A DNA stretch of 64,000 nt from a virus: IMG/VR virus record IMGVR_UViG_3300045971_001064, positions 11,256-75,255 of that record. One strand, 5' to 3'. Position numbers and translations under genes: made by a program. This document shows positions 9,848 through 60,904 of the stretch, in pieces (positions within the stretch are counted from its first letter, which is position 1; every line of letters begins with the position of its first letter). The notes below the pieces were generated by a model. That model searched no databases, was not told the origin of the DNA, and saw nothing but the letters and a program-made list of their open reading frames with translations.

Positions 9848-9893
9848 AATCGCTCCACGGGGCACGCAGGAAGTCTGGCGCGGCTTGGCGAGG

Positions 9894-9904
9894 CGTGCTA
9901 GGAT
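9894..9904 (+). promoter_or_regulatory. Extended -10 promoter CGTGC-TAGGAT
   Basis: Same CGTGCTA core as eight - strand promoters. Confidence 0.45.
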
Positions 9905-17257: not shown

Positions 17258-17740
17258 ATGACCCTCACGTGCCCAAGGTGCAAGGCTGCTAAGCCGTCCG
17301 ACCAGTTCAATCGCGACGTGAGTCGCCCAAGCGGAAGGCAGGTGTCCTGCCGAGCGTGTGAGAAGGTCTACCGCGACACGATGATGGACAGGACCAAGAG
17401 GTCGGCCGACAACAAGGCTTGGCGCTTGGCCAATCGCGAGTACGTTCGTGCCGAGAACCGCGCGTGGCACTACCGCGCCAACTACGGCATGACCATCGCC
17501 GACTACGACGCGCTGTTGCTGAAGCAGGGCGGTGGATGTGCGGTCTGCAAGACTAAGAAGACCGGCACGCGCAACCACTTCTTCTGCGTCGACCACCGCC
17601 ACGTCGATGGCTACGACGCGCTGGTGGCCGAGGAGAAGCGGCGTCACGTCCGCGGCCTGCTCTGTGTGACCTGCAACTTGGTAGCCGGGAAGCTGGAGGA
17701 GTTCCCCGGCGCCTTCGAGGCCTACGTGGCGGGGCTCTAG
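17258..17740 (+). CDS. Endonuclease VII-family HNH homing endonuclease
   Basis: YGMTIADYDALL.KQGGGCAVC...VDH.H...VRGLLC..CN, plus an N-terminal CxxC/CxxC. Confidence 0.85.
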   Translation: MTLTCPRCKAAKPSDQFNRDVSRPSGRQVSCRACEKVYRDTMMDRTKRSADNKAWRLANREYVRAENRAWHYRANYGMTIADYDALLLKQGGGCAVCKTKKTGTRNHFFCVDHRHVDGYDALVAEEKRRHVRGLLCVTCNLVAGKLEEFPGAFEAYVAGL

Positions 17741-25762: not shown

Positions 25763-25773
25763 ATGATAGCACG
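25763..25773 (-). promoter_or_regulatory. Extended -10 promoter CGTGC-TATCAT
   Basis: Intergenic, upstream of 25734. Confidence 0.6.
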
Positions 25774-25791
25774 CGGCTCAGCCGCGCGCCA

Positions 25792-28905: not shown

Positions 28906-28916
28906 ACCATAGCACG
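28906..28916 (-). promoter_or_regulatory. Extended -10 promoter CGTGC-TATGGT
   Basis: Intergenic, back to back with TAATCTAG at 28945. Confidence 0.55.
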
Positions 28917-28944
28917 ACCCCTCGACGTGCGCCACTCTGGGCCG

Positions 28945-33009: not shown

Positions 33010-33020
33010 CGTGCTACAAT
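33010..33020 (+). promoter_or_regulatory. Extended -10 promoter CGTGC-TACAAT
   Basis: Near-consensus, immediately upstream of the GIY-YIG ATG 33032. Confidence 0.65.
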
Positions 33021-33031
33021 ATAAGTTAACT

Positions 33032-33646
33032 ATGACCCCTCGCTTCCTTATCTATGGACTCATCGACCCGCGCTCGGGAGAGTTGCGGTACGTGGGGAAG
33101 AGTGTGACTGGGTTGGCGAGACCAAGACAGCACGTCCAGCCGGTTTTCTTGAAGCGTGAGGGCTCGACCCACAAGGCAAACTGGCTCCGTCAGCTTCTGG
33201 CTGCTGGGCTGAAGCCCGAGGTCGAGGTGTTGGAGACCCATTTCATCGCCTACTTCCGCAGCATCGGCTGTCGGCTGACGAATCTAACGGATGGCGGCGA
33301 CGGGCTGTTGGGGCGAAAGGTGTCTGCTGAGACGCGCAGACGCATCTCACTTTCCAACACCGGAAAGAAGCGTTCTGACTTGTCGCGGCAGATGATGTCA
33401 CAGAAGCGTCTCGGAGCAGCGCCCTACAACAAGGGATGCGTTATGTCGCCTGAGCAGAGAGCCAAGCTGTCGGCGACTCAAGGTGGTCGGCCGTTTGTGG
33501 ACCAGAATGGGGTGGTCTATCAGACGCAAGGCGAAGCTGTCCGCAAGCTGGGGCTGTGTCAAGGCAACGTCAGTCGAGTGCTGAACGGCAGCTACAGCGC
33601 AACCGGCGGCTTCACTTTCAAGTACGCGGAGGCCGTGTGCAGCTAA
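33032..33646 (+). CDS. GIY-YIG homing endonuclease (NUMOD3/HTH tail), probably inactivated by an in-frame deletion
   Basis: LIYGLIDPRSGELRYVGKS; lacks 12 aa that are present in the paralog at 45257. Confidence 0.85.
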   Translation: MTPRFLIYGLIDPRSGELRYVGKSVTGLARPRQHVQPVFLKREGSTHKANWLRQLLAAGLKPEVEVLETHFIAYFRSIGCRLTNLTDGGDGLLGRKVSAETRRRISLSNTGKKRSDLSRQMMSQKRLGAAPYNKGCVMSPEQRAKLSATQGGRPFVDQNGVVYQTQGEAVRKLGLCQGNVSRVLNGSYSATGGFTFKYAEAVCS

Positions 33647-35618: not shown

Positions 35619-36017
35619 TTACTTGGAGTCGGTCTTGGACAAGGATGCGTTGAGAACCTTGCGCTCTGCCAGACGCTCGGCGATGGTCTTGTTGCCCTTG
35701 GCGAGCCCGCTGAGGCTGCCTGCGGGGAAGGCGCCGTCCTTGTCGGCCTCGACCTTGGTGACGCCCTTGTAGAACTTCGGGGCCCGCTTCGCCGACTCCT
35801 CCAGCGTCTCGACCTCAGGCGCGGGCGGAACGTAGACGGACTCCGGCCGCACTCGGTCCGCGTCGTACTTGATGGGCGCCCCGGTGTACTCGTCGTCGAA
35901 GCCATCAGCAGCGGCCCAGCCGTACTGGCCATCCTTGTGCTCGCCCTTGTGGCCCGTCTCCAACTCGCAGGTGAGCAGGTAGACGGGGTGGCTGAAGCGA
36001 CGGTAGCACTGGGTCAC
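35619..36017 (-). CDS. Hypothetical protein
   Basis: GTGA overlap; C.L..GH.G.H motif. Confidence 0.5.
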   Translation of the reverse strand: MTQCYRRFSHPVYLLTCELETGHKGEHKDGQYGWAAADGFDDEYTGAPIKYDADRVRPESVYVPPAPEVETLEESAKRAPKFYKGVTKVEADKDGAFPAGSLSGLAKGNKTIAERLAERKVLNASLSKTDSK

Positions 36018-37168
36018 TGAAGCTCCGTTCCGCCCTTGCGCAGCTTGTAGGCCTCGCTCACGCTCTTGAGGATGACCCGCTCCTCGGCGCTCTTGGTCTT
36101 GACCACGACGCCCTCTCGGATGTGGCTGGCGAGCGTGCTCGTGCCACTGGTCAACTCCAGCAGCTTCGCCTCGCTGAAGGGGCCGTCGTAGAGCACGGGG
36201 ACATGCTCCAGCCCGAGTGCCTCGCAGACGAGTTGCGTCCGGTGCCACGACAGCCACCGCTTGGCGTCGAGGTCGTAGATGTCGAAGACCTTGAACCATA
36301 CCTGCCCAGACTCGGCGCCGTACTTCAGGTCCTGCACAGCGCCGTACACCTCTCCGTACAGGAAGAGGCGGGCGAAGGCCTTGTTGAGCAGGTTGGCGAA
36401 GTCGTACTGGTCAGCCACCTGCCAGTAGAGGCTGCGCTTGAGCGGGCCCCGGCCCGGACGCTTGAGGACCTTGGTGCGGACCCACTCGCCGAAGCGCTCG
36501 CGGAGGAGCGGCACCCGGCTGGCCATGTCGCGCCAGAAGTGGTTGCGCGAGCCGACGTAGAGTTGCCCGTTGGCCCAGCCGAAGCGCGCGTTGGTGCCAT
36601 GGAGCTTCTCGGTGAGGACCACCTCGTCGCCGTCGGTCAGCAGGTGCCTGTTCCGCTTGTAGGGCTCGATGTCGTAGACCGGCACGCCGGGGTCCTCCTC
36701 GTGCGTGCGAAGCTGGTCGTGGAAGCACCAGTGCCAGAAGTGCCCGGCGAGCCCGCGCTTCGAGGGGATGCTCAGTCCCGGCGTCGACGTGCCCCAGTTG
36801 TCGGGGACCTTGTCCTGATGCTTGGCGATGCCGAGGTCGCCTGAGCAGTCGTGCCCCACCCCTCCATCCTTCAGGCCGTCCGAACCCAGCTTGAGGGGGC
36901 CGGTGAGAGGCAGCAGGAGCCCCTCGCTGTAGACGCCGCGCAGGCGCTTGGCCTTGATGCGGCGGTGCTCGCCGAGGAACTCGGTGCCGGGCACGGTGGG
37001 CGGGATGACGGCGTCGACGGGCACGTAGATGGCGACGTCGCCCTCGACGTAGTCGCCGGTCCGGATGACGACGGTCTCGCCCTCGACCACGGTGGTCGAC
37101 AGGGTGTCAGCGTTGGCGTGCTTCTCGACGGCGCCGATGCGAACGATGGGGCAGGTGAAGGTGCTCAT
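36014..37168 (-). CDS. RNA ligase (DRB0094/Rnl5-like)
   Basis: N-terminal OB fold HANAD.L...GD.AIY.P.D...RI....LRG.YSEGLLLP; motifs TEKLHGTN, GEVYG, FDI, VPVLY, REGVVVK, LKSVS..Y. Confidence 0.9.
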   Translation of the reverse strand: MSTFTCPIVRIGAVEKHANADTLSTTVVEGETVVIRTGDYVEGDVAIYVPVDAVIPPTVPGTEFLGEHRRIKAKRLRGVYSEGLLLPLTGPLKLGSDGLKDGGVGHDCSGDLGIAKHQDKVPDNWGTSTPGLSIPSKRGLAGHFWHWCFHDQLRTHEEDPGVPVYDIEPYKRNRHLLTDGDEVVLTEKLHGTNARFGWANGQLYVGSRNHFWRDMASRVPLLRERFGEWVRTKVLKRPGRGPLKRSLYWQVADQYDFANLLNKAFARLFLYGEVYGAVQDLKYGAESGQVWFKVFDIYDLDAKRWLSWHRTQLVCEALGLEHVPVLYDGPFSEAKLLELTSGTSTLASHIREGVVVKTKSAEERVILKSVSEAYKLRKGGTELQ

Positions 37169-37175
37169 GGCTCTC

Positions 37176-37808
37176 CTAGCGCTGGCCGTGGGTGCAGTGG
37201 CTGAGGGGGACGCGGCAGTACGAGCAGATGGGTTGCGCTGAAGCGCGCAGGTAGGGGTGGATGTGCTTGCGGCACCAGCGGCCTTCACCGCCGACTCCGC
37301 TGTACAGCCCGCGTTCTGGGCAGCCGGGCTCGGAGCAGGGGGTGTGAGCGGGGCAGTACTTGGTGTAGCCCTTGCCATCGAAGTAGCGGTAGCAGTCGGA
37401 GCAGTAGTCGTGTGGGTCGCACGTCGGCTCCGGCATCTTGACGGTGTGGTGCCCGGACACCATGGCGGGCTGCTTCTTCTTCCACTCCACGGTCGTGGGC
37501 GTCACGCCCTCGGTGGAGATGAACTCGCTGATGGCGAGGGTCATCTCGCCTCGCGCGGTGTGCAGCACCGCGTACCCCTTCGACGCTCCTCCCCAGTAAC
37601 CCCGCCCGACATCGACGCGCACCAGCACGGCGCCCTTGAGGAGGACACCGTTGAAGAAGACCTGCGAGTTCGGAAGGTCGGCGATGTTCGTCACTTCCAG
37701 CACGGCGCCCTTGTTGAAGTCGAGCACGGGCACGTGAGCTTCCTCGCGCACCTCCTCTTGGACGGTGACGGGCTTGGTGGTGATGCGCTCGAAGTGGGTG
37801 GTCTTCAT
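37176..37808 (-). CDS. Hypothetical protein with a Cys-rich C-terminus
   Basis: Multiple CxxC / CxxH pairs. Confidence 0.55.
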   Translation of the reverse strand: MKTTHFERITTKPVTVQEEVREEAHVPVLDFNKGAVLEVTNIADLPNSQVFFNGVLLKGAVLVRVDVGRGYWGGASKGYAVLHTARGEMTLAISEFISTEGVTPTTVEWKKKQPAMVSGHHTVKMPEPTCDPHDYCSDCYRYFDGKGYTKYCPAHTPCSEPGCPERGLYSGVGGEGRWCRKHIHPYLRASAQPICSYCRVPLSHCTHGQR

Positions 37809-38083
37809 CGCGTGGTCCTCTTGCGGGTAGGCTTGGGTGGCGGAACGGGTGAGGCGCTGTAGGCCCGGTCAGCGATGCGCTCGTTCCGCATCCACTGCTC
37901 CTTCGTGGGCAGGTCCTCGCGGAAGGCGCGACGCGCGCAGGCCTCGCAGCAAGCCACGGAGTCGCCAGTCACCTTGGCGCCGTCAGGCAGCAGGGCCCAG
38001 CACTTGGTGGGCGTGCGGCAGAAGCAGCAGCGCTCCTGACCCCAGACGCCCATGTCCTTCGGCTCCTGCTCGACGAAAATCAT
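37805..38083 (-). CDS. Zinc-finger hypothetical protein
   Basis: ERCCFCRTPT..W...VACC..CA. Confidence 0.55.
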   Translation of the reverse strand: MIFVEQEPKDMGVWGQERCCFCRTPTKCWALLPDGAKVTGDSVACCEACARRAFREDLPTKEQWMRNERIADRAYSASPVPPPKPTRKRTTR

Positions 38084-38532
38084 GGCGAGAACCTCTGGTA
38101 GCTGTGGGTGCAGACGTGGGTGCACCACTCGGCGTGGCGCGTGTTGCGCAGCTTGCCGCAGCAGGGCGATGGAGCTTCGAGGCAGACCTCGCAGTGGCGC
38201 TCGCGGAAGAGCGCTGCCTCCTCGGGCGTCCTTGTTCTCACCGCAGCCTCTCCGGGCAGCGGGTGGCAGATGTGGCAGGCCGAGCCGTCGCACTCATGCT
38301 GCTGCGTGAACCCCTGCCTGCCCGCGATGTAGCCGTGCTCGGGCTGGGTGGCCAGCATGTGGACGGTCTTGGGGTCGAAGCTCGGCCCGTAGCTGACGTT
38401 GTGGAAGATGCCGATGAGCCGCGGCACGCCGTCCGCGTCGTTGAGGTAGACGCGAGCCTTGGCGCCGTACCAGACCTTCGGCTTACGGCGGAGGCCGAGT
38501 CGGACCAGCAGTCTGTTCCACCAGAGTGGCAT
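38080..38532 (-). CDS. Partial tail-tube paralog fused to a Cys/His-rich domain
   Basis: KPKVWYGAKA...GIFHNVSYGPSFD matches KSKVLHGARA...GIFNNVSYGVTYD of the tube at 48354; leaderless start from TAGGAT-N6-ATG. Confidence 0.65.
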   Translation of the reverse strand: MPLWWNRLLVRLGLRRKPKVWYGAKARVYLNDADGVPRLIGIFHNVSYGPSFDPKTVHMLATQPEHGYIAGRQGFTQQHECDGSACHICHPLPGEAAVRTRTPEEAALFRERHCEVCLEAPSPCCGKLRNTRHAEWCTHVCTHSYQRFSP

Positions 38533-38538
38533 GCACAC

Positions 38539-38549
38539 ATCCTAGCACG
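38539..38549 (-). promoter_or_regulatory. Extended -10 leaderless promoter CGTGC-TAGGAT-N6-ATG
   Basis: Direct sequence. Confidence 0.65.
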
Positions 38550-38571
38550 GCCCTCCCGACGGCGCCACCGG

Positions 38572-38578
38572 TAATCTA
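38572..38578 (+). promoter_or_regulatory. Putative late promoter TAATCTA
   Basis: Heads the 38606 island. Confidence 0.6.
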
Positions 38579-38605: not shown

Positions 38606-39499
38606 ATGAGCAACATCACCGTCACCCTCGATACTTCGGGCATCGGCGAGGTCATGCGCGAAATCGCGGCCGTGCAGGAGGAGGTCGCGAAGAAGGTCGG
38701 CGACCTCGCTGCCCAGACGCACCTGCACATCAAGGAGCAGGTCCAGCAGAAGCTGACGAGCCGCCGCCAGATGTACGACGACGCCCTCGACAACGTGGTG
38801 GAGGTCTCGCCCGGCGTCCACGTCATCACGCTGAAGAAGGAAGCGGTCTGGATTGAGGAGGGGATGGACGCCCACTCGATGGTGGACGACCTCCTCAAGA
38901 ACAACGCCAAGACCGCGAAGGACGGCTCGAAGTACAAGGTCATCCCCTTCGAGCACGACAAGGGCGGGGCGAGCCAGACTCTCCAGACCAACACACTCAA
39001 CATGGCCCTGCGCACGGAGTTGAAGAAGCGCAACATCCCGTACAAGGGCATCGAGCGTGGGCCGGGCGGCGCGCCGAAGTCGGGCCTGCTCCACAAGTTC
39101 AACATGATGGACTCGCCCAACCGCCCCGCGGGCACTGCTGGGAAGCCGGGCTGGGGCAAGGGCCCTGAGGGCGCAGTGATGCAGGGCCCGAACTCGCTCG
39201 GTGGCTCGGGTGGCGGGACGCCTCTGCTCAAGGGCGTGCGCATCTACCAGACCGCGCTCTTCAAGAAGGATGCTGCTGGCAACGAAGTCCCCGACCTCGA
39301 CAAGAAGGGCAAGCAGAAGGCCACGCGCAGCATCATGACCTTCCGCGTGGTGTCGTCCAAGCACAAGGGCGTGAAGTGGGAGCACCCCGGCATCGAGGGG
39401 ACGCACTTCTTCGAGGAGGCCGAGACGTGGGCCAAGCAGGAGTGGGACAACCACATCGTGCCCGACATCGTCAAGAAGTTCGATTCACCGGGAGGATAG
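38606..39499 (+). CDS. Putative neck / tail-completion protein
   Basis: ..RR.MY.DAL...W.E.G...HSM...LL..AKT.KDGS.Y..IPF.H...FR.VS.K...W.HPG......EEA pattern of large myovirus neck proteins. Confidence 0.6.
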   Translation: MSNITVTLDTSGIGEVMREIAAVQEEVAKKVGDLAAQTHLHIKEQVQQKLTSRRQMYDDALDNVVEVSPGVHVITLKKEAVWIEEGMDAHSMVDDLLKNNAKTAKDGSKYKVIPFEHDKGGASQTLQTNTLNMALRTELKKRNIPYKGIERGPGGAPKSGLLHKFNMMDSPNRPAGTAGKPGWGKGPEGAVMQGPNSLGGSGGGTPLLKGVRIYQTALFKKDAAGNEVPDLDKKGKQKATRSIMTFRVVSSKHKGVKWEHPGIEGTHFFEEAETWAKQEWDNHIVPDIVKKFDSPGG

Positions 39500-39500
39500 T

Positions 39501-39713
39501 ATGAGCTTCAAGTTCAACAAGGACGAGGCGTTGTCGTGGGCTCTGTCCTTCGCGGTCATGCTCGGCATCGGCGTCGCAGCGCACGCAGCCTTCCACACCT
39601 ACTCGGTTGCCCACGACAGCATCACGTTCGTCACGGTGATGGTGTGGGGCGCGGTCGCTGCCTCGGGCCGCGTGGCGAAGGACGTCTCGGCCGCGCTGCT
39701 CGCTAGACGCTGA
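39501..39713 (+). CDS. Two-TM small membrane protein (holin-like)
   Basis: Paralog-like similarity to 35071..35268. Confidence 0.55.
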   Translation: MSFKFNKDEALSWALSFAVMLGIGVAAHAAFHTYSVAHDSITFVTVMVWGAVAASGRVAKDVSAALLARR

Positions 39714-40230
39714 CCGGCTCGTCGAGCGGGTCCTTGGGGCTCAGGGGCTTCGCCTTCTTCGGCTCGGGCTTCTTCTCTGCCGCCTTGCACTCGTTGAACA
39801 GGTTGACGCTGGTCGCCTCGGCCCACTCCTCAGTGAAGCCGAGGATGGCCTGCTTCTCGTACTCCGTGCCGTCGACGTTCTCGACCGCCTTGAGCCCGCC
39901 GCGGATGACCGAGTCGTAGGTGAACTTGGCGAGCCCGGCGCACGTGGGCAGCTTGTCGTACTCCGCGACCGCCTCCGGATTCAGGCAGGTGGCCAGAGCC
40001 GAGTCCCCGGCGAGGTTGCAGGTGAGCTTGATGAAGCCGCGGCCGTTGTCGGTGGTGGCCATCGGCAGTGCGGTCCGGTAGCAGGCCTTCGCGGTCATCG
40101 CGGCCACCACGCGACAGACCTTGCCCATGTCGGGCTCGCCCGCCTTCGCCACGAGCGGCAGCGCGAGGAAGAGCAGGATGGCCACGATGAAGAAGGCGGC
40201 GACGAAGCGGGCGAAGCTGCGGTTGGTCAC
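39703..40230 (-). CDS. Secreted / membrane-anchored Cys-containing protein
   Basis: Signal-peptide-like N-terminus; SD AAGGAG; CGTGC-TACGGT promoter at 40256-40266. Confidence 0.6.
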   Translation of the reverse strand: MTNRSFARFVAAFFIVAILLFLALPLVAKAGEPDMGKVCRVVAAMTAKACYRTALPMATTDNGRGFIKLTCNLAGDSALATCLNPEAVAEYDKLPTCAGLAKFTYDSVIRGGLKAVENVDGTEYEKQAILGFTEEWAEATSVNLFNECKAAEKKPEPKKAKPLSPKDPLDEPVSV

Positions 40231-40270
40231 GTGACGCTCCTTGGGGGAAAGAGATACCGTAGCACGGCGG

Positions 40271-41809: not shown

Positions 41810-42147
41810 GTCGGCGTGTTCTCATCCTTTGGGGTGGAAGGCTGGAGGCTGGCCTCGACCATGTTCGCCGCGCCGCGGCAGATGTCGGCGAGGTCGAGCG
41901 CCGAGGCCATGTCGTCGGGGTGCCTCTTGTCGAAGTCGCGGCACATCAGCTTGGCGACGTTGACCATCTCCTCGATGCAGGCCGACATCCACTTCAGGCG
42001 GTAGTGCGGGAAGGGCTCGTTCTTGGAGAGCGCCTCGTACATGGCGGCTCGCAGCTTGAGCCCGTGCTGGAGGCGGACCGAGGTGCGCGATGACTCGACG
42101 GCGTCACCCAGCACGGTCGCGATGAGGTCGAGGTCCTGACGAGGCAT
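41806..42147 (-). CDS. Hypothetical protein (leaderless)
   Basis: CGTGC-TACAGT-N6-ATG; its TGA lies in the P8 -35. Confidence 0.6.
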   Translation of the reverse strand: MPRQDLDLIATVLGDAVESSRTSVRLQHGLKLRAAMYEALSKNEPFPHYRLKWMSACIEEMVNVAKLMCRDFDKRHPDDMASALDLADICRGAANMVEASLQPSTPKDENTPT

Positions 42148-42188
42148 GCGAGTACTGTAGCACGGCCGCACGCAATCTTCCACTCAGA

Positions 42189-42998
42189 ATGGCCACCACC
42201 GAAGTCACTGGCATCTTCCAGACGCCCATCATCGTCAGGAGCGCCATCATCAAGTCCTTGCAGGAACTTCGGGAGGACCCGACTCTCATCGAGGACGCCC
42301 TCGCCTGCCTCGTGCAGGACGACCTGACCGCGGCGCGCTACGGCGAGAAGACCGTGGCCCAGTGCGTGGAGTGGTTCACGAAGACCAACATCCCGGTCAA
42401 GCTCGGCCTCAGCCTGACGCAGTTGACCTCGCCGTGCATCTCGGTGGAGTTGAGCGGCGGCGACGAGACCGAAGCCACACTCGGCGACGTCAACTACACG
42501 CCCAGCGAAGAGGACCCGCGTCGCCCCGGGCACTACCGCCAACTCGCCTCGGTGCACTCGCGCGAGAGCGTGAACGTCATCGTCATGGTGCAGGGCGAGG
42601 TCGAGTACCTGCTCTTCCTGTCCTCGCTGCTGCGCTTCGCCGTCCTTCGCCACAAGGAGGACCTCTTCGACGACCGCGGCTTCGCTCGGATGACGTGGGG
42701 CGCTGGCGTGTTCGGCTCGATGCCCGAGGCTCCGGGACGCGAGAACTTCTTCGCCAACACCGTCCGCGTGACCGGCTACGTGCGCCACGTCTGGCCCGTC
42801 CCGCTCGCGAAGGACCAGCCCGACACCGCCATCAGCAGCGTGCCGTTCGGGCCGCGCGTCGCTCCTGTAGCGCAGAACACCGAGGGCACCGCGACAAGCG
42901 TTCCGGCGACGCCCTCCGAGCCCGGGCCCGCTGGAGCCAATCCCTTCGACCCGGCGAACTGGCTGGACAGGGACATCATCTCGGGGAAGAAGACCTAA
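42189..42998 (+). CDS. Putative tail terminator / sheath stabiliser
   Basis: P.I.V.L....E....LG..., position upstream of the sheath; CAATCT at 42173. Confidence 0.55.
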   Translation: MATTEVTGIFQTPIIVRSAIIKSLQELREDPTLIEDALACLVQDDLTAARYGEKTVAQCVEWFTKTNIPVKLGLSLTQLTSPCISVELSGGDETEATLGDVNYTPSEEDPRRPGHYRQLASVHSRESVNVIVMVQGEVEYLLFLSSLLRFAVLRHKEDLFDDRGFARMTWGAGVFGSMPEAPGRENFFANTVRVTGYVRHVWPVPLAKDQPDTAISSVPFGPRVAPVAQNTEGTATSVPATPSEPGPAGANPFDPANWLDRDIISGKKT

Positions 42999-43015
42999 CC
43001 CCGTGAGCCCGCACC

Positions 43016-45897: not shown

Positions 45898-48330
45898 ATG
45901 GCTCAGACTTTCGTCGACGATTCCGGCACACTTGTGATTCCACAGGCCAACGCCAAGTGGGCGACGGCTCCGTCGAACTCCGGCATCGCCACTCGCGGCG
46001 TTGTGGTCCTCGTCGGTGAGGCCGACATCGGCCCCGACTTCTCGCAGGAGGCCGACGGCCTCGCTGGCGCGACCTTCGGGCCCGGCCAGTTCTCCGCCGT
46101 GCAGGCGAAGTACGGCAGCGGCCCCATCGTCGACGCCTTCCGCAACGTCGCCAACCCGTCTCGCGACCCGCAGGTCCGCGGCGCTCCGACTCAGGTCATC
46201 ACCATCAAGACCAACGTGGGCACCAAGGCTCAGGGCGCTCTGACTGGCGGCTACGCGGTCGCCCGCGCCAAGGCTGCTGGCGCCAACGGTAACCTCATCT
46301 CGGTCGAGGTGCAGGGCAAGACCGCCGAGCGCGCTGCGACCATCTCGAAGGCCTTCATCCGGTCCACCGGCACCGAGGCCATCGGCGTCGCTGCCAATGG
46401 CGGCACCCCGGCCACCCTCGTGGTCACCGACCTCACCCCGACCGCCTTCGTGGCGACCAACCTCGCGGCCCTCGGGCTCGTCGGCGTCACCGTCGCTGGT
46501 GGCGTGAACTCGAAGCCCGCCAACGGCCTCGTGGCCGTGACCGCTGAGGTCACCGTCGCTGGCGCCGTCGTCACCATCGCCATCTCCGGCGGGACGTGGT
46601 CGAACCAGCCCGCCGCTGGCTGGACGCTCCTCATCGGCGGCGCCTCGCCCATCATGGGCGGCACCGGACAGAACTCGGGCTACTACGTGGTCACCTCGGC
46701 AACCCCGAGCACCATCGTGGCGAAGAAGATTGTCGACATCGACGGCGCCACCTACACGGCCCCCGTCGCTGTCGCCCCCGGCGCCGCGGCTGACGCGACG
46801 ACCTGCGACGCCTACACCCCGGTGACCTTCACCAACGCCGTGGGCGTGGTCGAGGGGCTCGGCGGCTCGCTGAGCATCTACCGCCCGGTCGCCTCCACCG
46901 GCAGCCACTTCTTCGACACGAGCGCTGCTCCCCTCGCCGCCAGCGTGTTCACCACGTCGACGACCGAGCGCGTGGTCAGCGTCCTCGTCAACAGGAAGAA
47001 CGACAACCTGTCCGAGACCCTGAACGCCGGGGGCAACGTGGCCCTGTCGGTCGGCAAGACGGGCAGCACGGGCGCCACGGTCACCGTGGACGCCACCACC
47101 ATCACCCTGAGCGGCGGCATCGTCCTCACCAAGGCGAGCTTCCAGACCATCGGCGACGTGGCGGCCTACATCAACGCCCAGACCGGCTGGTACGCCTCCA
47201 CCCCGGCGGCCTTCCAGTCCAAGTCCCCGAGCGTGCTCGACCGCGGCGTCTTCAAGGCCGACCAGAACGGCATCGCCTCGACCGGCCCGGCGCGCATCAA
47301 GCTGGACGCCTACGCGGTCGTGACTGCCATCGGCACCAGCAACGGCATCGAGTTCGCCTCCAACCCCACCACCGGTCTCCCGGCGGTGCAGGCGGCGTCC
47401 TTCCTCGCTGGCGGCCTCAAGGGCGGCACCACTGACGCTGTCGTGGCGGCTGCTCTCGCGGCTGCCGGGCTGACCCGCTGCAACTTCGTGGTCACCTGCT
47501 TCTCGCGCGACGCCTCGCTGGACATCGCCGATGGCCTGACCGACTCGACGTCGACCTACACCATCGACGGCATCAACGCCTACAACGCGGCCCACGTGGC
47601 CAGCTTCTCGCAGTTCAAGAAGCGCCGCCCGCGTCAGGCCTTCGTGTCCAAGAAGGGCACGTTCACCGAGGCGAAGACCGCCGCTCAGACGCTGGCCTCG
47701 GCCCGCGTGGCGCTGGCCTTCCAAGACGTCGCTGCTCTGGGCGCCGCCGGGACGCAGTGGTTCCAGCCGTGGATGGGCGCCGTCATCGCCGCGGGCATGC
47801 AGGCCGCGGGCTTCTACCGGCCCATCTTCAACAAGAGCGTCGGGCTGACCGGCGTGACGCAGGCCGCTGGCGACTTCAAATCGCAGGACGATGACCAAGT
47901 CGAGGAGGCTCTGCTCGCAGGCCTGCTCGTCATCCGGCTGCGCGACGGCGGTGGGTTCTCCTTCGTGAGCGACCAGACCACCTACGCCACGGACGAGAAC
48001 TTCGTCTACAACTCGATTCAGGCCATGTACGTCGCCGACGTCATCGCCCAGACAGTCGCCCAGCGGATGGAGCGCGCCTTCGTCGGCCAGTCCTTCGCGG
48101 ACGTCACCGCCGGGGTCGCCCTGTCGTACCTCAAGGGCATCATGGCCGACCTGAAGCGCCTCAAGCTCATCGCCACCTCGGACGACGCGGTCGACGGCTA
48201 CAAGGACGCCAAGGTCGAGATTCGCCCGCCCGCCATGCTGGTGTCGGCTGAGGTCAAGGAGGCGACGGGGCTGTACTTCATCCCCATCAGCTTCCTCGTC
48301 ACGCAGGTCCAGCAGACCGCGCAGCAGTAA
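45898..48330 (+). CDS. Tail sheath protein (with a large insertion domain)
   Basis: N-terminal GVVVLVGEA..GP..YG.G; C-terminal DQTTY..D.NFVYN.I..MYVAD, F.G, VEI.P..M.V..EVK..TGLYFIPI; directly followed by the tube. Confidence 0.9.
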   Translation: MAQTFVDDSGTLVIPQANAKWATAPSNSGIATRGVVVLVGEADIGPDFSQEADGLAGATFGPGQFSAVQAKYGSGPIVDAFRNVANPSRDPQVRGAPTQVITIKTNVGTKAQGALTGGYAVARAKAAGANGNLISVEVQGKTAERAATISKAFIRSTGTEAIGVAANGGTPATLVVTDLTPTAFVATNLAALGLVGVTVAGGVNSKPANGLVAVTAEVTVAGAVVTIAISGGTWSNQPAAGWTLLIGGASPIMGGTGQNSGYYVVTSATPSTIVAKKIVDIDGATYTAPVAVAPGAAADATTCDAYTPVTFTNAVGVVEGLGGSLSIYRPVASTGSHFFDTSAAPLAASVFTTSTTERVVSVLVNRKNDNLSETLNAGGNVALSVGKTGSTGATVTVDATTITLSGGIVLTKASFQTIGDVAAYINAQTGWYASTPAAFQSKSPSVLDRGVFKADQNGIASTGPARIKLDAYAVVTAIGTSNGIEFASNPTTGLPAVQAASFLAGGLKGGTTDAVVAAALAAAGLTRCNFVVTCFSRDASLDIADGLTDSTSTYTIDGINAYNAAHVASFSQFKKRRPRQAFVSKKGTFTEAKTAAQTLASARVALAFQDVAALGAAGTQWFQPWMGAVIAAGMQAAGFYRPIFNKSVGLTGVTQAAGDFKSQDDDQVEEALLAGLLVIRLRDGGGFSFVSDQTTYATDENFVYNSIQAMYVADVIAQTVAQRMERAFVGQSFADVTAGVALSYLKGIMADLKRLKLIATSDDAVDGYKDAKVEIRPPAMLVSAEVKEATGLYFIPISFLVTQVQQTAQQ

Positions 48331-48353: not shown

Positions 48354-48854
48354 ATGGCCAAGAGCAAGGTTCTTCACGGTGCACGGGCGGTCCTCTGGAT
48401 TGGGACCACGCCGGTCGGCATCTTCAACAACGTGTCGTACGGCGTCACCTACGACATCGCCCCCGTCTACATCCTCGGCCGCGCGTCGGCTGCCGAGTTG
48501 GTGTACACCGGCATGGAGGTCGTGCAGGTCAGCGCCTCCGGCTTCCGCATCTTGGAGAACGGCCCGTTCGCGGTCGTCGACAAGGACACGGGCTCCAGCC
48601 TCCTGCCGAAGTTGCAGGACATCCTGAACTATCAGGACCTGACGGTCTCGCTGCATGACCGTCTGGAGACCGACCCGGCCAAGGGCACTCTGATGGTGCT
48701 CACCAACGTCAAGCCGCAGGGCTTCACGTCGAGCGTCGGCGCTCGCGGCTTGCAGGACATGACCGTGACCTTCCAAGGCCTCCACCTCTCCGACGAGTCC
48801 GGCGCGAACAACGAGGGCGCTGGCGCGGCTGACCTTCCGGCTGGCAGCGACTAG
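48354..48854 (+). CDS. Tail tube protein
   Basis: 166 aa, beta-rich, immediately after the sheath; SD AGGAGAG. Confidence 0.85.
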   Translation: MAKSKVLHGARAVLWIGTTPVGIFNNVSYGVTYDIAPVYILGRASAAELVYTGMEVVQVSASGFRILENGPFAVVDKDTGSSLLPKLQDILNYQDLTVSLHDRLETDPAKGTLMVLTNVKPQGFTSSVGARGLQDMTVTFQGLHLSDESGANNEGAGAADLPAGSD

Positions 48855-48857
48855 CCG

Positions 48858-49124
48858 ATGGTCAGGGCGAAGCTCACGAGGGCCGACGGCTCCACGCTTG
48901 AACTGGAGGGCACTTCGGAAGAGGTGTCCGCAGTTCTTGCGTGGGAGCGCCCGGCTGCCCCGCTGGGCCACTTGCAGCCCCTCGTCCTCCCAATCCCCTA
49001 CCAGCCGCCCGCGAGCCCCATCCCGGGCACGTGGGGGCCCTTCTCTGGCGGCGTCAGCGGGGGCGTCGTTCCCTGCACCGCCACTTCCCCCTTGGACCTG
49101 CCCGTGGCGGCAGCCTCGAACTAG
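48858..49124 (+). CDS. Hypothetical protein
   Basis: KLT..DG..LELEGT.EEV plus a proline-rich tail. Confidence 0.5.
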   Translation: MVRAKLTRADGSTLELEGTSEEVSAVLAWERPAAPLGHLQPLVLPIPYQPPASPIPGTWGPFSGGVSGGVVPCTATSPLDLPVAAASN

Positions 49125-53633: not shown

Positions 53634-53686
53634 GTGCTGCTCCTTGTGCGGGTTGGAACTACCATAGCACGCTGCCTCTGCTGGCG

Positions 53687-59998: not shown

Positions 59999-60043
59999 GT
60001 CGACATCCTAGCACGGCTCGAAGCCGCGCGCAATCTAGAACGC

Positions 60044-60802: not shown

Positions 60803-60904
60803 GTGCTGCTCCGTGGACTGCGGGTTGCGTTGGGTGCCGATTCCCAACCCTCTGTTGGCGACAGGTCTACCATAGCACGCAGCCACATGCTCCGCCACCA
60901 GAAG

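Follow-up and report, generated by a model that had tools for sequence, protein, structure and literature searches.

The stretch of viral DNA described here, 64,000 nucleotides (nt) long and referred to below as the window, comprises bases 11256–75255 of a 98.7-kb uncultured viral contig (IMG/VR record IMGVR_UViG_3300045971_001064) with an estimated completeness of ~60% and a G+C content of 66%. On its minus strand, at 38080..38532, the window carries a gene for a protein of 150 amino acids (P0001), here called the fragment protein, part of which resembles the N terminus of the tail tube protein of the same phage. Sequence comparisons give good support to the view that this fragment gene is a truncated, partial duplication of the 5′ end of the tube gene, which now exists as an independent small gene. 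The look-up of sequencing runs traced the window sequence to DNA from pond metagenomes and listed no RNA sequencing run containing it.

The phage can be placed by its sequence as an uncultured relative of Myxococcus phage Mx1, for which the published description reports a long contractile tail (PMC10720576). The tube of the window is 46–50% identical to the product of the Mx1 gene that follows the sheath gene, and the two sheaths are ~40% identical. In the window the tail sheath gene (45898..48330, plus strand) lies directly upstream of the tube gene and is homologous to the annotated sheath of Mx1; its match to PF04984 (E = 6e-7, 29.8 bits) falls just short of the curated cut-off of 31.4 bits. 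The tube gene itself (48354..48854, plus strand, 166 amino acids) is the full-length paralogue from which the fragment derives. It encodes a genuine contractile-tail tube, since it follows the sheath gene, its family profile matches the tail tube of phage 812 (8q01_A, E = 5e-6), and the best Foldseek matches of its model are the tail tubes of phages, diffocin, monocin, and related injection systems.

The fragment gene and its relation to the tail tube

The reality of the fragment gene is supported by its codon-position composition, by its sequence, and by homologues in seven lineages. The G+C content at third codon positions (GC3) is 0.73–1.00 in the frame of the open reading frame (ORF) 38080–38538, from ~38560 down to 38080, where the high values pass to the frame of the following gene; over the whole ORF it is 0.90. 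Because GC3 stays high in this frame along the full length of the ORF, the Cys/His-rich C terminus of the protein is translated sequence and no frame artefact. The possibility that this tail is a by-product of an overlapping ORF of 162 amino acids (37805–38293) is ruled out by the same profile, as well as by the homologues. Translation likely starts at ATG 38532 and not at GTG 38538, since all homologues begin with M-R-N/K-L-W, and the stop codon overlaps the ATG of the following gene (ATGA).

Residues 17–72 (38317..38484, minus strand) form the tube-like segment, which is homologous to residues 3–54 of the tube, corresponding to strands β1–β4. A direct BLASTP comparison of the fragment protein with the tube gives 17 identities in 45 positions (E = 3e-7), and in six-frame searches of the whole 98.7-kb record the fragment and the tube each match only the other (E = 9.5e-4 and 2.5e-3). 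Alignment of the profile of three full-length fragment homologues to that of 31 tube sequences with hhalign yields E = 2e-9, and comparison of six N-terminal modules of the family with the tubes yields E = 2.8e-10 over 52 columns. The same register is found at E = 2.9e-6 with a subset of three members from which the window protein and the two most tube-like relatives are left out. When the N-terminal module profile is run against the complete genome of Mx1, the sole match is the Mx1 tube gene (E = 3.5e-5). An earlier note on this DNA, made from its letters, had proposed an ORF ending at 38080 on the minus strand, aligned its residues ~17–61 with the N terminus of the tube, and described the remainder as replaced by a Cys/His-rich domain. 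The ORF is a real gene, as codon-position G+C indicates, the alignment is significant both pairwise and between profiles, the hidden Markov model comparison that the note had named as a check included, and the replacement of the remainder is borne out by the GC3 frame and by the homologues.

Significant similarity to the tube fold is confined to residues 17–72. The complete fold (~140–170 amino acids, two sheets and a helix) is not present, with the alignment ending at tube residue 54 of 166. Although a MAFFT alignment brought the C termini together, profile comparison finds nothing past that residue, and a full-length but shrunken paralogue of the tube is thereby rejected. Nor does the gene lie directly downstream of the sheath, as it is found 9.8 kb from the tube gene, on the opposite strand, in a cassette with an RNA ligase gene. 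The aligned codons of fragment and tube are 61% identical and include many synonymous and serine-family differences, and because of this the duplication of the 5′ end of the tube gene is judged to be old. This level of codon identity also rules out recent recombination, as well as antisense pairing with the tube gene.

The positions common to the two families are the fold-defining G, F, Y-G, and L of the β1–β2 hairpin, which are invariant or nearly so in both. An AlphaFold2 model of the fragment protein, built from an alignment of three sequences, is poor (predicted local distance difference test score, pLDDT, of 50) and serves here for secondary structure only. It includes a helix at residues 3–11, predicted with low confidence, and a hairpin of strands 21–31 and 37–48, compared to strands 7–16 and 19–30 in the model of the tube. 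The ESM Atlas model is also poor, so that its structural neighbours are meaningless. A predicted complex of the tube with residues 1–80 of the fragment protein scores 0.01, with both folds uncertain, and gives no verdict for or against binding.

Domain architecture and evolutionary rates of the fragment family

The family comprises seven lineages in two collections of 5.8 and 1.8 billion proteins, compared to at least 58 clusters of tubes. All members belong to uncultured Mx1-like phages, and a search with the profile of the N-terminal module (N-module) places no copy in the complete genome of Mx1. Neither was a match to the fragment protein found by tblastn among 50,697 phage records, and scans of IMG/VR, of JGI metagenome contigs, and of GTDB genomes with alignments of the family or of the C-terminal module returned no confirmed loci. 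Four lineages (P0001, P0002, P0003, and P0070) combine the N-module with a Cys/His module, two (P0062, 63 amino acids, and P0063, 75 amino acids) consist of the N-module only, and one (P0065, 112 amino acids) joins it to a different, helical C terminus. Since members exist that have only the N-module or carry another C terminus, the N-module would be the functional core of the family. We found no described family for either module.

The N-module starts with a leader of 16 residues (38485..38532, minus strand) with the pattern M-x-x-L-W-x-R-L-L-x-x-L-G-x-R, in which W5, R7, L9, and R15 are invariant. No other part of the N-module is as well conserved as this leader, which is present in all members of the family and which the tube lacks. 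A signal peptide or an amphipathic membrane helix is not supported, with a hydrophobic moment of 0.12–0.29 and no long hydrophobic run. In the tube-like segment that follows, the β1–β2 turn is specific to the family, being five residues longer than that of the tube and carrying an invariant D-G. Residues 79–98 of the window protein (38239..38298, minus strand) form an insertion of 20 amino acids that is absent from every homologue in the alignments; it contributes six further Cys/His residues and may create an additional small metal-binding knuckle.

The C-terminal Cys/His module, residues 104–150 (38083..38223, minus strand), is nearly invariant among the three closest homologues. It contains nine invariant Cys/His residues in the pattern H-C-x2-C-x7-C-x7-H-x3-C-x-H-x-C-x-H, within the signature F-R-D/E-R-H-C-x2-C ... 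C-x-H-x-C-x-H-x-F/Y-Q, and is predicted to bind metal, probably as a two-metal zinc site. Comparison with Pfam, NCBIfam, PHROGs, and the sequences of the PDB gave no match, and the module has no paralogue within the record. Elsewhere it forms the N- or C-terminal part of small proteins that are otherwise unrelated and are encoded on phage-like contigs (P0064 and P0066–P0069), where proteins with the zinc module only are surrounded by arrays of small genes coding for products without known function. One of these proteins, P0066, additionally bears a DnaJ-like C-x2-C-x-G-x-G motif. The module appears to be a previously undescribed mobile domain that is optional in the fragment family.

Evolutionary rates were estimated by pairwise counting between the window and the related contig L009, with similar synonymous rates (dS 0.3–0.6) throughout, and over seven pairs for the tube-like segment. 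The tubes of this pair are 95% identical in amino acids (nonsynonymous rate, dN, 0.04; dN/dS 0.09), the products of the plus-strand gene that adjoins the fragment gene 91% (dN 0.05, dN/dS 0.12), the sheaths 86% (dN/dS 0.31), and the RNA ligases 76% (dN 0.19, dN/dS 0.44). The fragment proteins are 45–57% identical, depending on the alignment, with dN/dS of 0.76 for the whole protein. Within the protein, the leader has a ratio of 0.20 and the zinc module one of 0.41, while the tube-like segment reaches ~1.2 (dN 0.70); this segment evolves ~17 times faster than the tube and does not track it. Across the seven pairs the ratio varies between 0.5 and 1.8 for the tube-like segment and between 0.12 and 0.31 for the leader; the zinc module, shared by both proteins in five of the pairs, has ratios of 0.4–1.0. 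These ratios are rough, being pairwise counts over ~45 codons with an extreme GC3 and codon bias; the contrast with the tube is nevertheless large. In two relatives the tubes are 95% identical and the tube-like parts of the fragment proteins ~32%, and pairwise BLASTP no longer matches P0003 and P0065 to the tubes of their own phages. The other fast-evolving gene of the block (39703–40230, minus strand) encodes a protein of 175 amino acids with a signal-peptide-like N terminus; it is 38% identical to its counterpart in L009, with dN/dS of ~1.4, and has its own promoter with the motif CGTGCTA.

The high ratio in the tube-like part, together with the truncated look of the versions of 63 and 75 amino acids, would fit a decaying, functionless remnant of the duplication. 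Such decay is extremely improbable, as the frame is open in seven lineages at 36–57% identity, the leader evolves under the low ratios given above, the fold-defining residues are kept, GC3 is 0.9, and both the promoter and the position of the start codon behind it are conserved.

Promoter and operon context

The promoter of the fragment gene (38539..38567, minus strand) comprises a −35-like TGGCGC (38567–38562), a spacer of 17 nt ending in TGC, and a −10 element TAGGAT (38544–38539). The motif CGTGCTA, present at 10 sites compared to 4.6 expected, is a part of this bipartite arrangement (TGGCGC, 17 nt ending in TGC, TAnnnT), which appears to represent a sigma-70-type promoter with an extended −10 (TGn). 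In the form TGGCGC-N15-19-TANNNT, the bipartite motif occurs at 7 sites compared to 0.9 expected, a count that none of 100 shuffles reaches. Promoters of this class are positioned just upstream of mainly small genes on the minus strand. They are found at 9876–9904 on the plus strand and, on the minus strand, at 25763–25791, 28906–28934, 38539–38567, 40260–40266, 42158–42164, 53665–53671, 60009–60015, and 60873–60879. An upstream TAGATTAC element (38571..38578, minus strand) is common to several of them and also precedes the homologues in L009, L015, L017, and L020. Read on the plus strand, it includes a possible −10 element, TAATCT, for the divergent gene described below.

At three genes of the class, with starts at 38532, 42147, and 59998, the ATG is located 6 nt after the −10 element, and the start at 42147 is confirmed by an alignment of homologues. 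The A of ATG 38532 is the seventh nucleotide after the −10, which is the usual position of the transcription start, and owing to this spacing the three genes are probably leaderless. The other genes of the class have leaders of ~22 nt with a Shine-Dalgarno site. Both the promoter and the gap of 6–7 nt between the −10 and the ATG are kept in four relatives (L009, L015, L017, and L020). The fragment gene thus displays, on the sequence, all the elements of a leaderless gene with a sigma-70 extended −10 promoter (TGn and TAnnnT, and a start codon where transcription is expected to begin), and it would be expressed early, or in any case not as a late gene.

The fragment gene is the first cistron of a minus-strand operon of four tightly coupled genes. 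It is followed by a translationally coupled second cistron (37805..38083) for a Cys-rich protein of 92 amino acids, which is 79% identical to the product of the L009 gene and is absent from the operons of L015 and L020. The third cistron (37176..37808) encodes a protein of 210 amino acids with a Cys/His-rich C terminus and has a homologue in L020 and none in L015. No family could be assigned to either protein, and neither has paralogues within the record. The last gene (36014..37168) encodes an RNA ligase of the DraRnl (DRB0094) type, which matches PF09414 (E = 7.6e-35) and PF21189 (E = 9.6e-12) and consists of an N-terminal oligonucleotide/oligosaccharide-binding (OB) fold and an adenylyltransferase domain. 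Its match to TIGR02306 (E = 1.9e-35) lies below the curated cut-off of that family, and its start was set by alignment with the homologues of L006 and L015.

The fragment gene also stands as the first cistron before the ligase in L006/L009, L018, L020, and L015, with varying genes in between; in L015 the fragment gene, here encoding 75 amino acids, overlaps the start of the ligase gene directly. L017 has the same beginning of the operon on a short contig that ends before the position of the ligase, whereas the complete genome of Mx1 has neither the fragment gene nor a ligase of the DraRnl type. On the other side, in every relative, the fragment gene adjoins a divergent gene for a protein of 297 amino acids (38606..39499, plus strand; phrog_16819, with no function assigned), the homologue of which in Mx1 is located within the block of structural genes. 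The cassette is thus antisense between plus-strand genes, inside the structural-gene region.

On these grounds the fragment gene is well supported as an accessory gene, in agreement with the earlier note, which had placed it on the opposite strand in an accessory block and behind a CGTGCTA promoter positioned for a leaderless messenger. The strand and the block are those of a minus-strand RNA-ligase cassette absent from Mx1, and the promoter assignment is well founded on the enrichment of the motif and on a geometry retained in four relatives. Three features had escaped the note, namely the conserved leader, the optional character of the C-terminal module, and the constant association with an RNA ligase.

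Its company in the operon raises the possibility that the fragment protein is an accessory subunit or a regulator of the ligase or of RNA repair, in which case the tube homology would reflect a small β domain exapted for a new purpose, with the Cys/His module binding nucleic acid. The gene lies upstream of the ligase and is translationally coupled to the operon, in L015 by direct overlap with the ligase start; the two genes occur together in five lineages (the sixth contig ends early) and are both missing in Mx1, and the rest of the operon encodes small Cys/His-rich proteins. We consider such a role quite unlikely, because synteny inherited by descent provides no independent evidence, because no ligase accompanies the gene on the contig of L011, the most distant member of the family, and because a fast-changing surface is unlike that of a fixed partner of an enzyme that itself evolves with dN/dS of 0.4–0.6. 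Ligases of the DraRnl type are, moreover, not known to need a partner.

The position of the cassette within the structural-gene region and the tube-derived strands could instead be reconciled with a minor component of the virion or the tail, such as a protein of the tube end or the lumen. This is very unlikely for a gene that is on the opposite strand, has its own promoter, shares an operon with an RNA ligase and small Cys-rich proteins, is absent from Mx1, and evolves fast.

Possible functions of the fragment protein

Comparison of the fragment protein with contractile tail tubes (the tube of the same phage, that of Mx1, that of phage 812 (8q01), and the fold of Hcp and T4 gp19) reveals the same core of G, F, Y-G, and L and the same predicted β1–β2 hairpin. 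Unlike these proteins, it keeps only about one-third of the fold, to which a leader, a longer turn with D-G, and an unrelated C terminus are added, and its gene does not stand beside that of the sheath and evolves at the much higher rate noted above. Other paralogues with the tube fold, such as tube initiators, tail terminators, and fusions of Hcp with effectors, likewise reuse tube-derived sequence for a second role. In them the tube fold is intact and the protein works as a component of the machine, whereas the fragment protein has only a partial fold and is encoded in an accessory operon. The comparative data indicate that the fragment gene does not specify an ordinary part of the tail and is not needed to build a tail of the Mx1 type.

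A regulator or chaperone of assembly, close to the regulator of tube polymerisation that the earlier note had offered as its alternative, would pair its tube-like strands with free tube subunits, with the terminator, or with a ring interface. It would thereby slow or cap polymerisation, or keep the monomer concealed. What was copied is the N-terminal sheet of the tube, which builds the barrel of the lumen, and in phage 812, the closest relative by sequence with a solved structure, the N termini of the tube insert between subunits of the tail terminator (PMC12886913). In L011, moreover, the gene shortly follows those of sheath and tube in the same orientation. However, the partner of a tube conserved at 95% should itself stay conserved, while the tube-like part of the fragment proteins is ~32% identical with dN/dS near 1, and the gene belongs to an accessory cassette that runs antisense and includes an RNA ligase, not to the tail module. 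An essential role in assembly is disfavoured because Mx1 builds the same type of tail without the gene, and a regulatory role of this kind seems unlikely on the whole.

We tentatively favour, at somewhat short of an even chance, the reading that the fragment protein acts in the cytoplasm as a free binding module directed at a partner that varies, likely a host factor, and is a non-structural, probably early accessory protein. Transcribed from a promoter of the host-sigma type, it would be produced as a free cytoplasmic protein and stay out of the tail. Leader and hairpin scaffold together would make up a small binding module, the surface of which would change quickly because its partner varies, that partner being most likely a factor of the host. 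The zinc module would serve as an added effector or as a second binding site, and the cassette as a whole would act as a unit of host takeover or counter-defence, with the ligase repairing RNA. We favour this reading because of the fast surface on a conserved scaffold, the accessory distribution, the separate promoter, and the company of an RNA-repair enzyme, a combination that, with its host-type promoter, is typical of early, host-directed phage proteins.

Several points weigh against a host-directed module. The constant link with the ligase may be synteny inherited among related phages, rather than functional coupling, and the high dN/dS could equally stem from a loosening of selection on what is no more than a linker or scaffold. 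The L011 gene, which lacks such a promoter, is found 2.3 kb downstream of the sheath and tube genes and in the same orientation, on a 16-kb contig that shows no ligase; this position may be the original site of the duplication. To our knowledge, no tube-sensing defence has been described in myxobacteria.

A narrower version of this host-directed reading, itself rather unlikely, is that of a decoy, as put forward in the earlier note, in which the fragment would offer a face like that of the tube monomer to a sensor of the highly conserved N terminus of the tube. A doubtful elaboration of it takes the protein as a look-alike of a trigger, where an early, abundant, leaderless copy would occupy the tube sensor of the host without activating it, and the ligase of the cassette would repair the damage if the defence fires. 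The surface that would be recognized on the tube is not kept by the fragment (~32% compared to 95% identity), and only residues of the fold core are common; some members have lost tube-like residues at the surface, which argues against mimicry in the strict sense. Searching the literature for decoys of tail tubes turned up only general reviews. The earlier note had invoked, as a precedent, the DSR2 defence system, triggered by tail tube protein and blocked by DSAD1 as a phage mimic. That DSAD1, an inhibitor from SPbeta, blocks DSR2 stands, but not that it is a mimic, since it attaches to the C-terminal domain of DSR2 in its open state and prevents tube binding by allostery, and it is not described as a tube mimic in the published account (PMC10981675). 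What the two cases would have in common is only the idea that a phage protein halts a defence set off by tube monomers.

In phage T4, an early peptide, Stp, and RNA repair by Pnk and Rnl1 belong together, and gp63 is both an RNA ligase and a factor for the attachment of tail fibres. In the case of Stp, Pnk, and Rnl1, a small phage protein made early takes part with an RNA ligase in one story of counter-defence, and gp63 is a historical link between RNA ligases and tail morphogenesis. Both are analogies only, as there is no sequence relation to the window proteins and the ligase of the window is of the DraRnl type, not of the Rnl1 type.

Phage structural proteins are common triggers of bacterial immunity, and a counter-measure made out of part of the trigger has yet to be shown; the fragment family is a clean candidate for testing one. 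If the protein is indeed a look-alike of the trigger, its fast-changing surface would record an arms race with the sensor, and no earlier case would exist of an anti-defence protein that descends from the very structural component sensed by the defence. Should the decoy idea fail, the locus still provides a defined case in which the 5′ end of a structural gene was turned into an accessory gene, as well as a new Cys/His module that is mobile among small phage proteins and a well-defined class of promoters with leaderless genes in Mx1-like myxophages, where gene expression is almost uncharted.

A gene for a protein of 88 amino acids directly follows the tube gene of the window (48858–49124, plus strand) and matches no PHROGs or NCBIfam family. 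In the record of Mx1 (L005 15493–15762; record 42740–43009), the gene right after the tube, coding for 89 amino acids, is named 'RNA ligase A', a name that appears doubtful because the window gene in the same position has no such family match; the equivalence of the two is by position only. Between sheath and tube, L009 has an inserted gene of the endonuclease VII type (PF02945; 13195–13656, plus strand). The window has no such gene there and includes a 31%-identical copy at 17258–17740 (plus strand); in both, the gene looks like a mobile, homing-type nuclease. At 33010–33100 (plus strand) in the window, a stretch of low G+C content follows a CGTGCTA promoter, and the ORF within it begins with M-T-P-R-F-L-I-Y-G-L-I-D-P, which, judged by eye only, resembles the start of a GIY-YIG homing endonuclease.

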